Below are positions 32,201-51,535 of a DNA stretch of 64,000 nucleotides, in pieces. The position numbers were made by a program, and so were the translations under genes. Position 1 is the first letter of the stretch; every line of letters starts with the position of its first letter. The notes under the pieces were generated by a model, which had not been told where the DNA came from, ran no database searches, and saw nothing but the letters and a program-made list of their open reading frames with translations. The DNA comes from Gekko japonicus (Eukaryota): contig NW_015160837.1 of assembly GCF_001447785.1 (NCBI RefSeq), positions 261,415-325,414 on the forward strand, in the 5' to 3' direction.

Positions 32201-35200
32201 CCATCACCAAATTGAACTGGGAATGGCTGATTAACTTAATAGGATGATGGTGGCACATGGAGATAAGACTTTACATCAATGCAAACCACTTAATTGTTCT
32301 GTCTCAGTGCTTCTACAATAGATCTATATCTAATCTAGAAGCATCTACACTTTACAGATTCTATACCCTACAGCAGTGGTGGCGAACCTATGGCACGGGT
32401 GCCAGAGGCGGCACTCAGAGCCCTCTCTGTGGGCACGCGTGCCATCGCCCCAGCCAGGCCCAGACCGTCATTAAAGTGTCGAATTCTCTGCCAAATAATT
32501 TTAAATCAATGGAAGCATTTGGGATTGCTTTCCTTACTTTGTTTGGATCATCTTAAGTTAGTGTATGAGTCGTTTTTTCTAAAGTAAAACCTCAGTATTC
32601 AGGTTAAATTGCCGTGTTGGCACTTTGCGATAAATAAGTGGGTTTTGGGTCGCAGTTTGGGCACTCGGTCTCTAAAAGGTTCGCCATCACTGCCCTACAG
32701 CGTTGTCGTAAGTCAGCTGTGACTTGATGGCACTTTCCACTACATTAATTTGTTGGAAGAGTGTTAGCAAATTCTATGAAGGAACATTTTGCAATTGCGT
32801 CCTTGACCAAGCCAGGAACTTGGGTTCGATTACATTTCTATTCTCAGTACTTGTTCCCTCTGGTACCTCTCTGGATAAATTCCTTGGTTCTGTCTGTCCT
32901 GGTTTGGCTTATTCTCTGTCTCAGTTCTAAGGCTAGGTAGGGAGTGTTGTGAGCAAAAGAGCTGAAAAGTATGGCCACGACCTTTGTTGTATTTAGTTTT
33001 TACCAGTATATCATTAAGACTGTCCCTGAACAACTTCTCTCTGAGAAAAGGGGATAAGGCCAGGTTCACCTTGGAGACAGCATTCACTATCCACGATTTA
33101 AGCCATCATTTGCGTTTGACTGGTATGACTGACGCCATGGCTCTAGACTCATCTAGGTTTGCATCTACCATAATGAGGCTTTGATTGACCATAAAACTCT
33201 CTCCCTGATGCTCGTGTTCCCTGCTGCTATTAGATGACCTTTAGCCATCCTTGGGGACTACTGTGCCTCAAACAAGAGTAGTTATAGGAATATTCATCAG
33301 AGGCATCTGTAAAAAAATCCATGGCATTATTAGGTAGGGTACAGAACCCTTATTTGAGTCTCAAAAGTTAATACCCTGGAAATCTTGTTGGTCTTTAAAG
33401 TACTAGTGGACTTGAATCTTGCTCTTCTGCTGTAGACCAACATGACTACACACCTGAAACTCATTTGGGGAGTGGGGCTGGCTAGTGTCACAGTACGCTT
33501 GTAGGAAACAGGCAGTTTCCAGTTCAAGAATTCAGAAAACTGGGAAACCCTCCCAGCACGTGTGTCTCTTGGGAACCAGCTCTTGTTCCTCCTGTGTGGT
33601 TCCGTCTTTGGGATCATTAAACACACCTGAAATCTCTAAAATTCTGAATGCTTTGGCCAAAATAGAAAGATCATCATGTGAAAAGGTATTTAAGTTGTTC
33701 AGTCTTTGTATCTTCTTCAGGAATTTCTGCATTCTCTGTCTGAGAAGTTATCTGAAATCTTGGATTCATCAATTAGCAGTCCTCATCCTGAGCTGCCCTA
33801 AGGCCCATATCTCTATGTTTAGCACAGATTTTTGTGCTTCCTTCATTGGCTAGGCTTTCCCAAGGTTTCTTTCAGTACAGATGCGCTTGTGGTGGTCTGG
33901 GCAGCCTTGCAGGCATATGTAGGGTTGTTTTGCCTTTGCCTGTTATTTCCCCGCCTGATTTTTGTGAAGGGGGGGGGAAGAGAGAGAGAATTTTTGCCTA
34001 AGGCATTTATGCCTCTGGTGACTAGTTGTGCTTCAGTCAACTGGAGACTAATTAGTTCTTTAGACTAATTAGCTCAGCCATTCCACAAATTCTAGAGAAA
34101 CATGAGTATATGACTGGAGGACCCCCTAATTCAGCATTTCTGCCCTCTACTGCCCTACAGCACTTCCGGGGAGGAAGATGGCTGGTCCTGTGCAGCAACA
34201 CTGACAAACGGACCTGTATTGTGCTCCTCTTCAAAGCAGCAATTTCCCCCGCCAAATATTCAAATGTTAACCTATAAACCTCTATTTCGATGGTACCTGA
34301 CCCCACATCAGCTGCATGGCATCAACCCCGCGATCCCTGACAGATGTTGGAAAAACTGTGGCGGCCGGGGCACCTATATTCATTGTTGGTGGGAGTGTCC
34401 CAAGGTCCGGGCCTTCTGGAGAGAAGTTAACGCCCAAATATTTCTAATTACAGGTTGCACCCTCCAACTGCAACCCTCCTTGTTCCTCCTGAATTATTGG
34501 AGCCATCCCGCCCCCAATGGGCTTATGAAAGAGCTAATAGAATTATGTCTTGCGGCTGCTAGGAATGTTATAGCATTTCTTTGGAAATCTAAGAAGACGC
34601 TGCTACTGAGAGATTGGTATCTGAAGTTGTGGGACGTTTTTCTACAGGACAAAGTTTCCACTAGTATCCTTCGATCTGAAAATCAACCTGTCCCTGACAA
34701 CCTCCAAGAAAAATGGATGCCCCTCTTAGAAGCGTCAGCAGCACATAAAATCGACACTTCCGTGTTTGCTCTGCATAAACATCAGGATTTGCTTTCCTAT
34801 TTTTAACTGTTCTTTTAAATTTTAAGTAAATAATTTTTTTTTAAAAATTCCCCCCCGCCAAAATTACTTCCCTTCTCAACTCCCTGCCAACACTAAACCT
34901 CTGAGATCAGCCTTCCCCAGGAATCATTCCCTGCCCAAGACTCAGAAAGGCCATGCACATCAATCCTGTCATGCAAGGAGTCTCCTTTGCTGTTAGGTTT
35001 TGGGGAGGTTTGACTGTGTTTCATCCTTGGAGGACATACAGCCATCCTTCCCAAGGATCTGCACTTCCATAGCCTTGGTAAGCTGACAGGCAAGATCAGG
35101 GAAATAAAAAGGGGAGCTGGTGGGGATCAAAACTGAGGAGAGAAAATAAGCAAGTTTTAAGATACTGGACTGGTAACAGTACAAAACGATGAGGTCTCAA

Positions 35201-38200
35201 GAAAGTCAAATATTCTCTAACCAACAAGGCAGGAAAAAAACTGAGAAAGAGGGTGACTCACACTGCTGGAGACCGAGAGTTAAAGATAGGACCTGACTCC
35301 TGACCTGATGGGAAGAACCATTCATAGCGAGAAGTATATATCCAGATCCTTCTCTCTCCCTAAGTCACCCTAGCAGTGGCTTGCTTGTGCAAGCTCAGCA
35401 TTCTTCAAACAATCACAGACCACTTCAAATCCAGAAGCATATCTGGGATTTGGGATTGCAGCACATGCTGTAACACACTCTTTCCCACCACTGATTATGT
35501 ACATCGTCACAAAGACCATTCTATAAGCCAGCAGTTGTCTCAAGAGACTATTTTGACAGCCCAAGTCTGTGTTATTTATTTATACCACCTTGTCTTCCAG
35601 AACTTTGTTTTTATATGATTGGACTGTACCCTCCAGGCTTTTACACATTAGCACAGGCACTGTATTACCGTCAAGTGTTACTGTAAGATAATGTAGGTAC
35701 ATACAAAGTCTGGTTAAGACCAAGTGGCTTTCCAGCTCAGTAGCACAGCTGACAGTGACCTTTACCAGATTTTACAGAGGAAGTAGATAAAAGCTTAAGA
35801 AAGTAATGGAGAATGTTATTCCCTATAGCCATCTAAGGTATAAGCAACAAGCAAAAATATGCCGCCCTTGAAATCCTAATGGATCCTCCTAGCTTCCATG
35901 AATTAGCTGACAACAACAGCCTGTTATCACCTCGCATATTATTAGAAAATACTATAATTGCACAATAGCTCCTTGTGAACTTGTAGAAGTGTGAAGAAAA
36001 TCACCTGATCAACTTAGGAAATATTCCTCATAGGCTGAAGAGAAACATACCTACTACTCTGAGCCCAGCTTTCTCTCACCTTCCCAACCTTTTTGACTAA
36101 TGTACTGGCCAGTGAAACAAACATTGATTGATTCAGCAGCCTATCTTGCACCTTCTCTCCACTTCAGATGGACGGTCTCTCATCAGTCCATTTCTCTCAT
36201 CAGCCCAATTAATTTCAAACACTACCAAGTTTACAGCATGCATCGCCAAACACGGACAACTCAACCTACCATGCTGCTCTACTTTGTGTGTGCACGTGCA
36301 CGTGCATGCGTGCTGCCAGCAGAGTGGGCTCTGAGAAGAGATTGGCAGATTTTCCAGAAATCAAAATCAAGAGGCATGTGTTACTTTAATATATCTATCT
36401 CTGAACCTCAAAACTGTCTCTCATCAGTGATAGCTAAATCGATCGATGTAGACATTAGCCCACCCTAAGGAACTACCATGTTTCCCCGAAAATAAGACAC
36501 TGTCTTATATTTATTTTTTCTCAAGAAGGCACACCAGGGCTTATACCACAAATGCATAGAAATCCTGCTAGGGCTTATTTTGGGGGTAAGTCTTATTTTC
36601 GGGGAAACAGGGTATACACACACATCCTTTTTTTGAGCCATAATGCAACAGAGCATTTTTGATGCACTACTAACTTCAGCAGTCATCCTGCTCCACAGAA
36701 AGAAGAGGGTGAACTTGCAACGTCACAGGGTTCAACCAATCAGCACTCTGCATGACCCACTTATACTTTCCAAACAGGCTCACCATTCAAATTATCTATG
36801 TTTGTATATAGTCAGTTCTGTGCAGCTTCCTTCTTCATCATCTATTCAATTGCCTTTCTAAGCCTCATCCTGCCACATTACAAAACATATTTATTTGGAA
36901 GCAAAACATCAGTTTCACAGGGAGCACAACATGAAGTGCCAATGCCATAACATATATTCTAACATAATTATACATGGAGTGGAGAAAAGCGGACAGTGGA
37001 AGCTTTTTCTTCCTCTCCCAGAGTACTGGAATTTGGGGGTCCTGTACCTATTACCTGTCAACGAAGTTGATGGGCAATACGTACAGGACAGACAAAAGGA
37101 AATACTTATTTACTCAATAAACAATTAAACTGTGGAATTTGCTGCCAATGGATGTAATAATGGCCATGAGTATGGATGGCTTTAAAATCAATTCAGACAG
37201 ATTCATAAAAGATAGGGTTCACCAGTGGCTGCCAGCCTCCATATTCAGAGGCGGTAAACCTCTGAAACCCAGTACTAGGAAGCAATGGGGGGGGGGGGTT
37301 TCCCTATGCTTTTTGGCCCTTCAGGGCAACTACTTAACCACTGTGTGAAACATGATACTGGACTAGATGGACTGATCACCTGATCCAGCAGGGCTTTTTT
37401 GTAGTATGTTCCTATCTAGTAGTACTCACTTAATAGCTCCTGGAGAGCCACATTCTCAATTATCATTAACCAAAACAGCCACATTTATTTCCATCCATGG
37501 TATGTAGTCTGCTCCTCAGGAAGGCTCTCAGCTTACCCATTTCTCTGGCAGGAGCTGTATCGAGGTGGGAACTACCTGCCAACGTGGTGCAATGACCTCA
37601 CCCACTTTCCTGAAGCATGAGATATACGGGCACATGCCACATTGGGCAACAGGGCTCAGAAAAGCCACATGTGGTCTTCCGGTTTTTGGCAACTCGCGAA
37701 TGAACGCACGCCATCGAGCTCCAATGAGTGCGATTCGGATCGAGGCTGCAGGGAGGGGGTTCGGAAGTCTTCGACCCCCCCCACGAAGCTCTTGGAAGGA
37801 GCTTCTAGCCTGGAGCGCTGGAGGAGCCGCTCCCGACGCCGCGGCTGAAGGATCAAGGCTCTTTTTTGCTCCTTAAGGTCCTGCTGCCCCAAGGCCAGCA
37901 ATGGCGTCCAGAGACGTTACCAGACCAGAGCACGCAAGGACTTAAGCAAAAGGACTCTCCCTATGGGATGACATCCAGCAAAAAAACAACAACCAGTGAG
38001 TTAATGCGTTTCAAAAGAAAGACAAAAGTAAAGTGGTTGGAAGAACTGACATGAGATGGCAAAGCCCCATAGAGAAAGGGGGGAGAACTCTTGGGAGGAA
38101 GAACCCTACCCTATAGCGCAAAAAGCAGCAAAACGGGAAGCAAGCCGTCAACAAGCTGTTAGAAACCCACCCAACCAAAGCGGATCGCAGCTGGGCTCAT

Positions 38201-41200
38201 TATTCAGTCTAGAGGGAAATCTTAGAACTTTTAAGAACTTTTACCTTAATGTAAACAATGTCACAACGTGGGGGGGAAATGGTGTCCAGAGGCACCACAG
38301 GAAGCACCAGCACATCATCACCAGTCATGAGACAGTAAACTACCACCAATTTAGCTGGTACGATCTCTGAAGCTTTGCATCCCCTGCTGGATCAGCTGAC
38401 GAACCTCAACAAAAAGTTTGATGATTTTCAGAAGGAGTTGAAGGAGACCAAAGATAAATCAAAGAAGACGGTCAAAAAGCTAATACAGGTTGAAACTAAG
38501 ACCAAAGAGATGGATCAAAGAATGGACATTGCTGAGAGAGAAAGAGCTTCTGAAAAACAACAATTACTACAATTGCAAGTTGAAAGATCCCTATATGTTT
38601 TAAGATTTCAAGGGTACCGGAAAAAAAAGATGAAAATTTAAGAGAAATCCTAAGCGAATCATTGGCCCCCTTGATCAACAGCAAACCTGAATTATTTTGC
38701 AAGCTGACACAGACATGATTTATAGAACTTATTCAGAGTTTGTGAAGAAAAATAATCTTCCAGGAGAAATATTTGTTAAATTTGCAAAAAGATCAACAAG
38801 AGACTTGATACTTAAAGCCTCTACTGCTACAACATTAAAAATCCAAGAGGAAGAGATAAAAGTACTGAAAGATGTACCATATGAAATACGTAAGAAGAGG
38901 AAGCAATACAGAAATATTACAACATTCCTTCAAAAGAACAATGTCTGATAACAACGGATTTTCCAGAAGGCCTTATATTCAACTACAAAAAGAAGGAAAA
39001 GATTGACTCTCTAAAGCAGACACATTCCTAAAGCAGTACCAAACTCCGATAAAAAGAGGAAAAAAGCAGAGGAAAAGAAGGTGATAGAAGAAAATAGCGA
39101 CCATCAAGTGTCAGCCACTGACAGCTCCTCATCTACTTCAGTGTCCCTAGGTGAAATCTTTGACTCTGACTTTGATTCCGATTTGGGTGCTGCTACACCC
39201 AGATCTTATAAGGTTAAAATCCCCTGGCAAAAGAAGAAGTGTAAAGACAAGAAGACATCCAAATGAAAATCGAAGATTTCTCTACATCAGAACTTAAAGA
39301 ATTTATATTATTGCTCATATGCGATACCAAAATTAAGAAATTTTTGTTCTTTCTATTTGAATACTTATTACTTAGTAATGTAATGGTTTATTGTAAACTT
39401 GATTATATAGGGAAATACCCAAAGTATAAGACAGATCATTATTGTACTTTGCTACTCTGAATTTGTAGTGTGTAGTTTTTGTAGTTTATAGTGAAAAGCA
39501 ATAAGAATTCTATTAAAAAAAAGAAAATAAAAGCCACATGTGCCTTCTGAGCCACTGAGTATCACTGTTCTTATCCTTATCACTGACATACTTTTTGTTG
39601 TGCCTTTCTGAAGTGGGGTGGTAGAAAAGAGTTTAAACCTCAAAGTTCATCACTTAATCACTGAAGCAGCTCTTTCAGGTTTTCCTATGCTTGTCCAGCA
39701 GCTTCTAGTATACTACTAGAGCCAGTTTGGTGTAGTGGTTAAGTGCACGGACTCTAATCTGGAAGAACCGAGTTTGATTCCCCACTCCTCCACTTGCACC
39801 TGGCTGGATGACCTTGGACAAGCCGCAGTTCTGATACGAGCAGTTTCTGTCAAGAACTCTCTCAGCCCCACCTACCTCAAAGGGTGTCTGTTGTGGGGAG
39901 GGGAAAGGAAAGGAGTTTGTAAGCCACTTTGAGACACCTTTGGGTAGTGAAGGGCGGGGTATAAATCCAATCCTTCTTCTTTTCTACTTATAATTGAACA
40001 ACATCCCTAGTTGTGAAAGATCCTCTGCAAAAATCTCTGACACTAAAACATGACGGCACTACAGAGAAAGGATCCAAAGAGAAGAAAATTTTATTAGCCC
40101 ACTTGCAGTTAATAATATAATTTAATTCATCATGCTAGATTTCTCTGATCTTCCTATTGCCTGGATTGAACATGAAGGAGAGAAGCCTAGTTTTGTATTT
40201 TTAGATACTCAACAGGAAGTTGTACTGTATTAAAAGAAACACTAGCAAAAACAGCACTCAGGCGTTCAAATTTCTTAACATTTTCTAGACAATAAAACTG
40301 ACTTTTTGCAATAATAACTCCTGTGCATCTACTAATATTCTCACATCCTTTCAGGGCTTGTCTACAAGTGATCACAACTTAAAGTAGCATACTAGAGACA
40401 CTGCATGCAGGTAGTCCTACTTCAGCTTTACAAACAATCTAGTTACTTATGGGAAAAACTGAAGCTACACAGAAGTTTGTAGCAATCTCAGTTCAGATTC
40501 TTTGAGACGGAAGTACAACTTGAAAAATGTAGGGTTTCCTTCTGATAAGCATATCGGTTTCTTGTTATGGTTACAGCTTTATATAATACCCAATCTATTT
40601 TACCATGACTCGCTTCTTGTCCTTCCCTCAACTGTTTTGAATTACAGTCTTCCTTATGGACATCTTCTATAAGCTCTGGAAATTCCTGTCACCTTAGGAC
40701 AAACACTAGTCTGCTGGGACACGAAATAGGCCACAGCACAGGAAGGGCAGGCAGTAATCTAGGCCTTCCTCTGTGTCATATGCAGGATTCAGAGGCCCTC
40801 CTCCAATCCTGGTATGCCAGATTCCTTCAGGCTGTGCCACTTGTGGCTTCCCTGCCACACACAGGTGACCCGTACTATAAAGAGAACCAGTACTGTTCAG
40901 TAGTGTAAAGAAGTTCAAATATTAATAGTTTAATTCTTGGCGAATGGAAAATCTCGGGCTACAGATGCTCAATAAAATTTGTGACTTTTCAATCATTTAA
41001 GTCAGAAAGTTAAGAGCAGGATAGGAACTACCCTGGTCAACCCCTGTACTTCTTAAAAGTATACATACCCTGTTTCCCCGAAAATAAGACCTACCCCCAA
41101 AATAAGCCCTAGCAGGATTTCTATGCATTTGTGGTATAAGCCCTAGTGTGTCTTCTTGAGAAAAAATAAATATGACAGTGTCTTATTTTCGGGGAAACAC

Positions 41201-44200
41201 GGTATACACCTGACTGTAAGACATTGAAATAAACCTTTTTGAGCATTCTTATCATACAGTTACTGTGACAATCATTCAATCATTTCTCCACTCAAAATAA
41301 CTTTTAATATACAGTATTATTGTATTTGCCTATAAAATATTGCTCTATGTTCTCCTATAAAAACTCAGAAGTAGAGCCTTCTGTGTCCGCTGACACCACT
41401 AATAGATTCCAGACTCTTCTCTGCCTCAGCTAAACTAGACCCTCACCCAACAAAGAGCTATACAAACACAGCTGACAATGAGCATGTCACAGGAGTTATC
41501 AAAGCCGCTTTCCAAACCTTTTCCCCCCCTATGTTGTGTGGGGGGGAGCTTCAAGGACCAGTATGTGAAAGTGGAATTCTCTGAGAAAACAGTAAATCCA
41601 GCAGCAACACCTGACTTGGGACATCCATATTATAACTACATTGCCAGCTCTGGGATAAGTAACAGAAACATTTAGTCCAAACGACATTATCAGCATAACA
41701 TAGGTTTACACATATCCCTGATCTGAATCAGGTCAGATACTACCACGGTGGATAAAAATCAATGTTTTTTTAAAGCAACATTCGATTTTTTAATTTGTTT
41801 TTAATTTGTCGGATTTATACCCCGCCCTCCCAGCCGAGGCCAGCTCAGGGTGGCTTACAGAGAGTAAAACATACGAATTACAATTTAAACCATTTGAAAC
41901 CAACTAAAACCATCTAACATAATAAAGTGCTAATAGTCAAATAGTGTTTAACGATGGCAGCCGTTAATCAATGGTCCCTTCTCCCAGTCGGCTCCTAGGT
42001 ATTCCCTTTAGGCGGCTGGCACAGGTGGCTGTTGTTGACGACTCCAGGGGGCAGGGCTCGCTATCGTCAGCTGTTAAAGGCAGCTCCTTAATTGAAGGCC
42101 TAGTGGAAGAACACCGTTTTACAGGCCCTGTGGGACTGGATGAGGTCCCGCAGGGCCCTGATCTCTTCTGGGAGCTCCTTCCTCCAGAACGGAGCCACCA
42201 CCAAGAAAGCCCTGGCCTTGATTGTAGCCAGCCTGGCCTCCTTGAGACCCGGAAGGACCAGTCGGTTCTGAGATGCTGATCGCAGTGCCCTCTGGGGAAC
42301 ATGTGGGGAAAGGCAGTCCCTCAGGTATGTAGGCCCCTGACCATAAAGGGTTTTAAAGGTAAGAACCAGCACCTTGAAAAGGATCTGGTATACTGTCAGC
42401 AGCCAGTGCAATGCTTTGGCACAGGCTGGATGTGCTCCTGCACAGGGAGACCCATCAAGAGCTTGGCTGCAGCATTTTGCACCAGCTGCAGCTTCTGGAT
42501 TTGAGACAATGGCAGCCCCATGTAGAGAACGTTACAGTAGTCCAGTCTCGACGTGACCATCGCGTGGATTGCTGTTGCCAAGTCGTTGCATTCGAGGAAG
42601 GGAACCAACTGCCTGGTCAGCCGAAGGTGGTAAAAAGCTGATTTGGCAGTGGCCGCTACCTGGGTCTCCAGTGTTAAGGAGGCATCCAGGAGCACTCCCA
42701 AACTCCTAACCTCCGGCGCTGTCAAAATACATATAAGTATTTTATATTTTTTCTTTTTAAAAATAACCTGGCTAAAATTAAATCTGAATACAAGTGCATT
42801 AAACCTATGCTCATACTCTCTTAAAACTGAAACAATGTCCCTGCTTTAAAAACATTGGATTAAGGGAGAAGTATCTTTTTTAGGTCAAGTATTTTAAATA
42901 TAGCACAATAGGTCATACACTATTGTTATTATGGTCTTGATAATGGGGGGAAGGAATGGCAAGAATATCACAAGCAACCCCTGGCTTGGGAAGATGCTAT
43001 CCTATCTCTCTTTATTATGCCCTTCTAAGTACCTGAGCACAGCAATTTGCTCAACTCTCAAATTATGCATATTTACCCTAAGCAAGCAATGAAAATTCCT
43101 GTCTTCTTATGAAAATAAACAGCTCTGCCTTTGCTCCAGAAAGTTCTGGGACCTTAGTTGCCTCTAAACAAAGAGGCATACCCAGCTACACAGACTACAA
43201 CAATCAAAATTTTTGGCTGTTAGCTAATTATGTTTCTGAGGTGGGGGCAGGATTGGTGCTACGGAACAGTGAAACAGAAAACAGCAACCCTGGGAAAAAG
43301 AAGTTGTTGTACATAAAGTATATGCTCTTTTTCAGTGATAAATTAATATGTTTTTAGAGGAAGATTAATCAGTTAGCAAACAAATATATAAAACACTATT
43401 AGGAAACCTTATTTAAATTAGTTTCTTTTTTCTTGTTCAATTAAGTAATGCCCATTTTATTTAATTCAGCCCATCCCCGACTATTATTTAGAACAGACAT
43501 ATAAAAAAACCAGATGCAGTTATGCATAATATTTATATAGCCCATTTAAAGAATTTCACATAAATTGTCTCAATAATCCTTACAATAACTACCACTGAGT
43601 ACTCAACGTGGGGAAAAGCTTAACACTTGCACTTTATCATAAAAAGGTCATGACGCTTTCAAAACCCACTGTCTCCAACATAAAACAAGCATGTCAATGT
43701 GCAGACATTATGCATAATCCTAAATAACTGGGATACTACTGAATGATCCAATGAGCTTGTAAATGTCTGGAAATCTAAAATGGACCAAGATTTGTGGGCC
43801 ATCTCTGAAATTCAAACATTCACTGCGATATATATTAATTAAATAAAACAAAGGACACATTCTAAAGGTTTTCTAAAATTATTTTGTTAACATATTTTGG
43901 AATATTTAAAGCACATTCTTATCTAGGAGAACTTTTGTAATCAAAAACTCACTATGAAGTCTACAGCACTGCAGCAAACAGCTTATACATTTATAGTCAG
44001 AATTGTGTAATTGTAGAACAGATGCATACTCTAGTTACTTGAAAATTTTACAATTGTACAAATGAACTAATGACTCTGGTCCATATGAAAATGCTACTGC
44101 ACATGCAGGAACATTAACATAGGCCTTCGTTTTGTCACCACCACACAAGTAAAATTTGGAATGAAAACAAGAAACTCCACATGCACAACAGCTGTAAAAA

Positions 44201-50460: not shown

Positions 50461-50599
50461 CATATCTATCTGCCATATCTACATGTATCCTGATTGTGTG
50501 GCCCAACCTACACTTTGATTGTGATGTCAGGTTTTTTTTGCCACTGTCAGGTTGCATCCCCAGTGTGTAACGACCCCGTAGGATTTTCTCCCCCCCCCA

Positions 50600-51405
50600 A
50601 AGGGGGATTTTTATTGCTTTTTCTATAAACTACAAACTACAACGAAAAAATAGGGAGGGAACATCTACATCTAAGGAGAAAGGAAAGAAAACCACTAATA
50701 GCTAAAACCCCAAGTATAGGAGATCATTACATCAGCTTATATAAATGTTAGTCTAAAATGCTTGCATTACATTGAACATAGTCGATTAAGCTAAATTATC
50801 TATCTTTTTAACCATTTTTGTTTAAAGACAACCCCCAGAGCATCATTTATGTCACATGCTCTAAGGCATCATTCAGAGTCCTTGAGCCTTCACTTTGCTT
50901 TATCTTTTCTAATCCTCAATTGGTATTCTCGTTTAGGGGCAGCCGCCCCCTTTTCTGAAGCAGAATCCTCGCCGGAAGACACAGAGTCCAATTCACCACT
51001 AGATTTGCTGTCATCTTCTTCTTTAGCGTCCTCAACTGGTTCTCCCAGTTGCAGTCTCAGGAACTCACGTGCTTTGGAATCAGAGTCAATTTTTTCTTTT
51101 TTTGTCCTGCAGTTTGAAAATGACGCATTCAGGGGTTAACCATCTGTAGGGAATGCTGTTTGTTTGTAAAAAAAAAAAAGGATTCAGTCTTTATACTTCT
51201 TCTTCCTTATTTCAAATGGTATGTCTTTTAAAATCCTGATAGTGGTGCCTCCGATTTTCAGGGGTGTTCCTGTAGTTGCTTTCAGGATGGAATCCCTCAC
51301 GTGTCTCTTCAAGAATCTAACCACTATCTCACCAGGCAGATTATTTTTCTTGATGTAAACGGAATAGGCCCTATAGACCACATCCATTTCGCTTATAAGA
51401 CCCTG
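50600..51405 (-). mobile_element. 5'-truncated ORF1-only L1-derived element (divergent relative of 37674-39528), inside a 5S SINE
   Basis: VYRAYSVYIKKNNLPGEIVVRF..RILKDIPFEIRKK, then YRWLTPE and an acidic tail with stop at 50890-50892; ~285-nt 3'UTR ending TTGTAGTTTATAGAAAAAGCAATAAA. Confidence 0.75.
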
Positions 51406-51535
51406 TATTTTCAAGGCCAGAGACATTCAGAGGTTGTTTGCCATTGCCTGCCTCTGCACAGCAACCCTAACCAAGGCTGACCCCACTTAGCTCCCCAGAT
51501 GAGATTAGGCTAACCTGGGCTATCAAGGTCAGGGT
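51406..51535 (-). mobile_element. 5S-derived SINE (remainder at ~50563-50590)
   Basis: TTTTCAAGGCCAGAGAC..TTTGCCATTGCCTGCCTCT..CTGGGCTATCAAGGTCAGGG; its GACCCCGTAGG piece lies on the far side of the ORF1-only insertion. Confidence 0.7.

Follow-up and report, generated by a model that had tools for sequence, protein, structure and literature searches.

Half-L1 elements and related retroelements

HAL1 (half-L1) elements of mammals were reportedly described by Smit in 1999 and by Bao and Jurka in 2010. They are derivatives of LINE-1 (long interspersed nuclear element 1, L1) that contain only its first open reading frame (ORF1) and, as stated in the available portions of the cited papers, arose several times in mammals (PMC5753468, PMC8535693, PMC13756887). 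A retroelement of this kind lies in a 64,000-nucleotide stretch of the Gekko japonicus genome (NCBI RefSeq assembly GCF_001447785.1, contig NW_015160837.1, positions 261,415 to 325,414, forward strand), which was analysed as a whole and is called the window here, all coordinates being counted from its first letter. The element is interpreted as a dead, full-length, ORF1-only LINE-1 derivative belonging to an old and many-branched gecko lineage, likely moved by ORF2 protein (ORF2p) borrowed from autonomous L1s, a reading to which a probability of roughly 0.87 is assigned. A first-pass annotation of the window had already proposed an ORF1-only element of a separate squamate family, and had pointed to genome-wide copies, Transposase_22 profiles, an ORF1 phylogeny, selection on ORF1 and a possible continuation of other copies into ORF2 as the evidence that would bear on it.

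The gecko element and HAL1 are both non-autonomous L1 derivatives encoding only an ORF1 protein (ORF1p) and having a promoter (a likely one in the gecko), a 3' untranslated region (UTR), a poly(A) tail and target-site duplications (TSDs), as far as the accessible text of the sources goes (PMC5753468, PMC5786205, PMC8535693, PMC13756887), and both are short enough for the promoter to survive insertion. Of the features of the HAL1 type, the following were found in the gecko: an L1 ORF1p, no ORF2, a multicopy unit with fixed ends, poly(A) and TSDs, and purifying selection. The gecko element differs in its reptilian host and in that its ends and ORF1 are of the type of lizard clade-1 L1s, for which reason a separate origin from mammalian HAL1 is likely; the 22% identity to human ORF1p and the lizard-type 5' end also argue against descent from mammalian L1, the tree being one without HAL1 sequences. 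The gecko clade radiated into many coexisting families, to about the depth of the autonomous L1s of its host. Altogether, the element likely works as HAL1 does and would be of a known kind with a probably separate origin, the addition being a deep, abundant and selected ORF1-only lineage in a reptile.

Autonomous clade-1 L1s of lizards, as described for Anolis in the available part of PMC5381506, share with the gecko element the GACTTCCGGT 5' terminus, a CpG-rich 5' UTR, an ORF1 composed of a coiled coil, an RNA recognition motif (RRM) and a domain at the C terminus (CTD), and a T-rich 3' UTR ending in AATAAA and poly(A). In these L1s an ORF2 with endonuclease and reverse transcriptase (RT) directly follows ORF1, which is not the case in the gecko element, and their 5' UTR measures ~1.3 kb against ~0.6 kb in the gecko. 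The coiled-coil motif RhxxhE, scored by eye, is present in 11 of 16 aligned half-clade ORF1s, compared with 2 of 12 lizard L1 families in that source. Outside the L1 clade, HeT-A (Jockey clade) and Ag-Sponge (CR1 clade) are bipartite non-autonomous LINEs which likewise retain ORF1 and take their RT from another element (PMC5786205, accessible portion); they belong to other LINE clades and hosts, and HeT-A is targeted to telomeres while the gecko copies are dispersed. L1TD1 also has an ORF1-derived coding sequence under purifying selection and no ORF2, but is a fixed host gene, whereas the gecko element forms multicopy mobile families with neutrally decaying copies.

No reptilian half-L1 was found in a literature search by title and beginning of the abstract, with supplements, subscription journals, Repbase and Dfam outside its range; the terms HAL1 and non-autonomous are absent from the accessible text of PMC5381506, as are HAL1, gecko and squamate from that of PMC5203782. 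In the literature searched, the ORF1-only lifestyle of LINE-1 is described only from mammals.

Structure and state of the element

The features delimited in the window are the following:

37660..37673, + strand: left TSD, 14 bp AAAAGCCACATGTG, the same as 39529-39542; the site is empty in a second species
37674..39528, + strand: ORF1-only L1-derived retroelement, complete, 1855 bp; copies in the same genome have the same two ends
37674..38278, + strand: 5' UTR, CpG-rich, likely with an internal RNA polymerase II promoter; terminus (G)GACTTCCGGT, which reads GTCTTCCGGT in the window copy
37996..38001, + strand: splice-donor-like motif GTGAGT, ~300-316 nt from the 5' end
38279..39266, + strand: L1-type ORF1, dead; coiled coil, RRM, CTD, acidic then basic tail
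39267..39514, + strand: AT-rich 3' UTR with TGTAG/T-rich repeats, without ORF2 remnant
39515..39528, + strand: A-rich tail, read from the sequence; the same ending in all family copies
39529..39542, + strand: right TSD, 14 bp AAAAGCCACATGTG, 14/14 match to the left copy
50581..51453, - strand: copy truncated at its 5' end, from a distant family within the ORF1-only lineage, 43% ORF1 identity to the window element

The layout given in the first-pass annotation holds in each of its parts. The 14-bp TSD announced there does bracket 1855 bp without a mismatch, and the leader, which begins GTCTTCCGG in the window copy and GACTTCCGG in the family majority sequence, is CpG-rich as described, with a GC content of 0.56 over the first 400 bp of the element versus 0.28-0.31 in the 3' UTR and 12 CpG within the first 100 nt of the majority sequence. 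The single ORF1 gene is indeed broken, by five frameshifting indels (near 38611, 38691, 38962, 39006 and 39063) and three stops in the majority frame (38336, 38946 and 38949). In the 3' UTR, put at ~250 nt, ~235 nt precede a poly(A) signal that has mutated to AATAAG (39500-39505); the A-rich tail comes next, and the reported lack of endonuclease and RT sequence was confirmed, no ORF2 remnant being detected in tail or 3' UTR (best tblastn E 0.22 against eight family majority sequences). The window element has diverged by 4.9% (Kimura two-parameter distance, non-CpG sites) from the family majority, family copies averaging 6.5%.

The GTGAGT motif is found at the same place in 5 of the 6 family majority sequences checked, and no spliced RNA joint was found at it. 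The start of a short upstream frame at 37901-37945, in ATGGCG context, echoes the ORF1 start region; this ATGGCG resembles a YY1 site.

Copies and insertion sites

A DNA search of the gecko's own genome with the window element produced 1676 candidates, of which 40 were scored and 30 loci fetched. Most of the scored copies cover the whole query at 83-89% identity; those fetched share the A tail at the 3' end and, 5'-truncated ones apart, start at or near (G)GACTTCCGG. Flanking duplications 12-24 bp long with at least 10 matching bases were observed in 24/30 copies versus 17/870 mismatched flank pairs, and are therefore not due to chance; the nearly full-length copies with individual TSDs that the first-pass annotation had anticipated thus exist. 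Moreover, a 544-nt contig of a related species (run X15) joins window positions 37382-37675 to 39560-39717 with 11 letters between them, and is the empty insertion site of the window element in that species.

Raw RNA reads cover the element in both orientations, each reaching a depth of at most 28 in X21 and at most 4 in X22; they are mostly 90-95% alike and uninformative for a promoter of the element's own.

Identity of the ORF1 protein

The majority sequence of the 30 copies (1866 nt) contains a single 334-codon frame at nt 601-1605, and one copy (L012:2096-3082) has conserved an intact natural ORF1 of 329 amino acids. Pfam, applied to the window fragments and to this intact ORF1, returned coiled-coil noise and no L1 ORF1 family match; a single-sequence search of the PDB with the intact ORF1 found no match, and the numbers of matches in three word-indexed protein searches were 1, 2 and 0. 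Among cluster representatives the intact ORF1 has 314 relatives at E <= 0.001, and a profile built from it and 101 relatives matches human L1 ORF1p (2ykp, E 9e-16). In the AlphaFold model (pLDDT, the predicted local distance difference test, 81) a long helix can be seen together with an RRM and a CTD, and the tail is disordered; the model's ten best Foldseek matches are all human L1 ORF1p (E 6e-10), with 22% identity. In the ESM Atlas, L1 RRM clusters appear at 0.93, a value taken as a lead only.

Based on the profile and the predicted fold, and not on a direct Pfam match, the family ORF1 is classed as an L1-type ORF1p, in agreement with the L1 ORF1-like gene first proposed. The HMMER comparison with Transposase_22 foreseen for this protein had a divided outcome, being negative for the family ORF1 itself and positive for 13 of the 102 aligned rows of the ORF1 profile. 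Three gecko database proteins (P0002, P0005 and P0014) match L1-type ORF1 under the names SYCE1 (low quality) and apolipoprotein A-IV-like, and are likely misannotated retroelement sequence.

Absence of ORF2 in the lineage

Through the element or its ORF1, 122 distinct loci were reached (30 by the DNA search, 22 and 20 more, then 30 and 20 for a distant family), and none of them continues into an ORF2 endonuclease. ORF2 sequence does occur past the tail in five of the 122, because the half elements there sit inside an L1; in L063 the TSD within the L1 RT gene was read directly, and this locus, which looked autonomous, was rejected as such because the half element has inserted into L1 RT with a TSD of its own. 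As a positive control, the post-RT part of ORF2 was used as the query, and at the loci with a same-strand ORF1 upstream (L088, L090, L092 and L099) the endonuclease follows ORF1 in 4/4 cases. The reverse test, with the 3' UTR alone of two families as the query, gave 60 loci, of which none shows the end of ORF2 upstream of the 3' UTR and 59 have adjoining ORF1 sequence. For the window-element family, ORF1 and never the end of ORF2 lies upstream in 30/30 copies, 18 of which keep at least 1300 nt upstream and are thus near full length. The continuation of other copies into ORF2, named beforehand as the observation that would overturn the reading, was therefore encountered from neither side.

The autonomous L1s of this genome have little or no spacer between ORF1 and ORF2, so that a prematurely polyadenylated L1 would carry ORF2 codons after the ORF1 stop. 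Two apparent L1/half chimeras (L251 and L254) were rejected as L1s inserted into full half elements, and an ORF2-only partner family was rejected since its members (L136, L138 and L151) are plain 5'-truncated L1s. The 3' stretch of an autonomous L1, used as a query, gave 11 candidates.

Selection on ORF1

A total of 128 half elements were grouped into 31 clusters at ~81% identity, and all five clusters with at least eight copies gave an intact majority frame. Eight duplicate loci and L153_F6 (a duplicated autonomous ORF1) were left out, the locus L044 (counted among the 122) did not enter the trees or the estimates of the ratio of nonsynonymous to synonymous change (dN/dS), and families F4, F13 and F24 were set aside on account of a broken majority frame. 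Among the 28 pairs formed by eight families, the 21 unsaturated ones have a dN/dS of 0.07-0.37; for the window-element family and its nearest analysed neighbour it is 0.08 (95% 0.05-0.13).

In a refined estimate CpG sites were removed, transitions and transversions treated apart, and private changes separated from shared ones. With CpG excluded, dN/dS in the window-element family is 1.09 for private changes (381 nonsynonymous, 98 synonymous) and 0.26 for shared changes (46 nonsynonymous, 72 synonymous); in four other families the private value is 0.59-1.09. Indels in the ORF are multiples of three for 4/5 family pairs, while those in the UTRs mostly are not. The private changes being neutral and the shared and between-family changes constrained, it follows that copies die at insertion and that the source elements needed ORF1, that is, the purifying selection looked for in the consensus ORF1 is present.

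Depth and abundance of the lineage

Further ORF1-only elements were recovered at 45-65% and at 38-47% identity to the window-element ORF1; they share the 5' terminus, and their poly(A) signal lies ~250-300 nt past the stop. Overall, the half-element families are 38-93% identical in ORF1 and each has its own UTRs. The careful tree unites 21 half elements with the database protein P0003 in one clade (support 100/99) apart from 19 autonomous ORF1s, and the quicker trees agree with a single half clade; database proteins without genomic context served as the outgroup, and mammalian HAL1 sequences are not included. Half-family ORF1s are 27-40% identical to autonomous ORF1s of the same genome over long alignments, and the root-to-tip length is ~0.6-1.1 in the half clade versus 0.6-1.2 in the main autonomous clade. 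Judged from these sequence comparisons, the window family is a terminal branch within a single ORF1-only clade whose depth is about that of the genome's autonomous L1s. The phylogeny against autonomous lizard L1s thus came out, within this genome, in favour of a separate half clade, and this, together with the lizard clade-1-type 5' end, supports an independent origin; of the separate squamate family first postulated, the separateness is supported and the scale was understated, a deep lineage of many families being found instead.

Copy number was approached with a sample of 385,800 called bases at round coordinates of 31 large scaffolds (a non-random draw), leaving out hits that match L071, which is another repeat. 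Four ORF1 matches were obtained, all of the half type and none autonomous, giving a density of ~10 ORF1-only elements per Mb and very roughly 26,000 copies (Poisson 7,000-66,000); the 26,707 loose candidates of the protein search are of the same order as this estimate and are not a copy number. Some of the autonomous L1s with intact ORF2 are young, with pairs 99.5-99.9% alike. In keeping with a gecko host, one autonomous ORF1 of the genome is nearly identical to a database protein assigned to Gekko japonicus.

With a slight preference, it may be proposed that ORF2 was lost once, long ago, and that this loss gave rise to a stable gecko lineage which radiated, outnumbers the ORF1-bearing L1s by tens of thousands and takes its ORF2p from active L1s. 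As formulated, this would include a depth equal to that of the autonomous L1 radiation of the host, a selected ORF1p of its own combined with a generic poly(A) end, and survival through L1 turnover.

Origin and mobilisation

The 5' terminus GACTTCCGGT matches the lizard clade-1 L1 consensus GACTTCCGGTG-N8-ATGGCG in the available text of PMC5381506, and the autonomous L1s of this genome also begin TTCCGG. A likely model can be outlined in which an ancestral lizard clade-1 L1 lost the whole of ORF2 and retained both ends; the 5' UTR would drive a polyadenylated 1.8-kb RNA, which the element's own ORF1p would coat in cis, likely as a trimer; the ORF2p of an autonomous L1 would then bind the poly(A) tail, nick an A-rich site and copy the RNA by target-primed reverse transcription. 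Since so short a unit would often be copied whole, the promoter would be kept and new source copies and families could arise. Mobilisation in trans by L1 ORF2p is likely in view of the poly(A) tail, the TSDs, the reciprocal nesting and one unverified chimera, and an RNA-chaperone activity may be attributed to the ORF1p.

Half elements lie inside L1 ORF2 (L063, L024) and L1s inside half elements (L306, L307), and because this nesting goes both ways the two appear to have been active over the same span. Nesting is frequent (L095 and L116 are further cases), and L306 contains an 840-codon open ORF2 piece in a full half element. The locus L150 (G000:C2815:425915-434615, - strand) is a young L1, flanked by a 16-bp TSD, with intact ORF2 and an internal deletion in ORF1; in place of its 3' UTR stand 65 nt that share 97% identity with half-element ORF1, followed by poly(A), and it is possibly a template-switch chimera, as a single unverified candidate.

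A hairpin of 5-7 bp between AATAAA and the A tail occurs in L086, L087, L091, L096, L145 and the basal half families and is absent from the window-element family; counted together, a terminal hairpin is present in 4/7 half families and 5/23 autonomous copies. At the end of the minus-strand copy at 50581..51453, AATAAA is followed by a CCCC..GGGG hairpin and then by a short A tail. A GACTCTG-like motif after the stop was dropped as a common feature, being found in 4/17 half and 5/31 autonomous UTRs.

Weighing of the interpretation

Several observations weigh against the interpretation as an ORF1-only lineage dependent on L1. The search for a partner L1 family by likeness of the 3' end (23 comparisons) pinned down none: the best likeness, shared with the L086/L087/L091 family over ~55 nt (p 0.005-0.01 each of 23), is of low complexity, and the AATAAA at the end of both sequences is there by construction. 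TSDs start purine-rich, and the strict TT/AAAA site is found in some copies only. Each search was sampled for its best 150 of ~26,000 candidates, and the autonomous ORF1s were gathered via two ORF2 queries, so that further L1 clades may have been missed. The half elements sampled are mostly old (median nearest-neighbour identity 89.8%, with one pair at 98.3%). As to selection, copies pooled against their own majority (Nei-Gojobori method, NG86) give dN/dS of 0.28-0.58 and not 1, the neutral value of ~1 is reached only after removal of CpG and the split into private and shared changes, and private values stay at 0.59-0.75 in three smaller, protein-selected families.

It is improbable that the elements are by-products of rare, unsampled autonomous L1s whose ORF2 was repeatedly spliced out or deleted, selection having acted in the full-length parents and the elements having no propagation of their own. 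Such parents could have escaped notice, since only top-scoring matches were inspected and the assembly is fragmented into 191,500 contigs, and the splice-donor-like motif in the 5' UTR fits the proposal; however, they should have left 5'-truncated copies with the end of ORF2 joined to these 3' UTRs, which were seen in 0/60 loci, a separate hidden parent would be needed for each family when 0/122 loci enter the endonuclease, and all four ORF1 matches of the fixed-coordinate sample are half-type. An ordinary L1 shortened by premature polyadenylation just past ORF1 is scarcely credible. Potential poly(A) signals are abundant in the ORFs of lizard L1s (PMC5381506, accessible portion), and the half-element fragment at the tail of L150 ends in poly(A) within ORF1; yet the near-zero spacer of autonomous L1s predicts ORF2 codons after the ORF1 stop, the 250-nt tail has no similarity to ORF2 and the 3' end keeps its position in every copy and family. 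Its constancy and the lack of ORF2 sequence refute this explanation, unless a long-spacer parent exists.

Processed pseudogenes of a domesticated, ORF1-derived host gene resembling L1TD1 are likewise an extremely unlikely source: purifying selection, a poly(A) tail and TSDs would be compatible with retrocopies, but many families coexist at 38-93% ORF1 identity with their own UTRs, shared substitutions within families suggest that source copies succeeded one another, the 5' end is that of an L1 and RNA reads over the element are sparse. A poly(A) tail and TSDs of 12-24 bp are marks of target-primed reverse transcription by the L1 clade. Their presence here, the L1-derived ends and ORF1, and the TSD-flanked L1 with a half-element fragment as its 3' end (L150, unverified) make it very unlikely that a self-propagating ORF1-only element obtained its help from another LINE clade (CR1, L2 or RTE), in spite of the lack of a defined L1 partner family and of weak RT matches (25-31%) in the fixed-coordinate sample that are maybe from other LINE clades. 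A dead member of an ORF1-only lineage that borrows L1 ORF2p is thus the interpretation retained.

HAL1-type elements figure in the literature as a mammalian oddity; a reptilian lineage of such depth and abundance would indicate that the loss of ORF2 can found a lasting parasite of L1. The lineage supplies many diverged and selected ORF1p variants, some of them as intact natural copies, which bear on the question of what role ORF1p plays in cis for an RNA that competes for ORF2p against the cis preference of L1. For genome annotation, half-element copies are liable to be counted as truncated L1s and Pfam overlooks the ORF1 of the window family, while gecko L1-type ORF1 sequence sits in protein databases under the names of host genes.

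Neighbouring sequences

A SINE-like (short interspersed element) repeat at 39718-39970, directly downstream of the element, reaches a depth of millions in DNA contigs and of thousands in RNA reads. Upstream of the element, at 34120-34686, there is weak similarity to the C-terminal part of L1 ORF2. Downstream, at 42294-42548, lies a dispersed repeat of 255 nt which was also detected in 4 of 40 sampled genome stretches.

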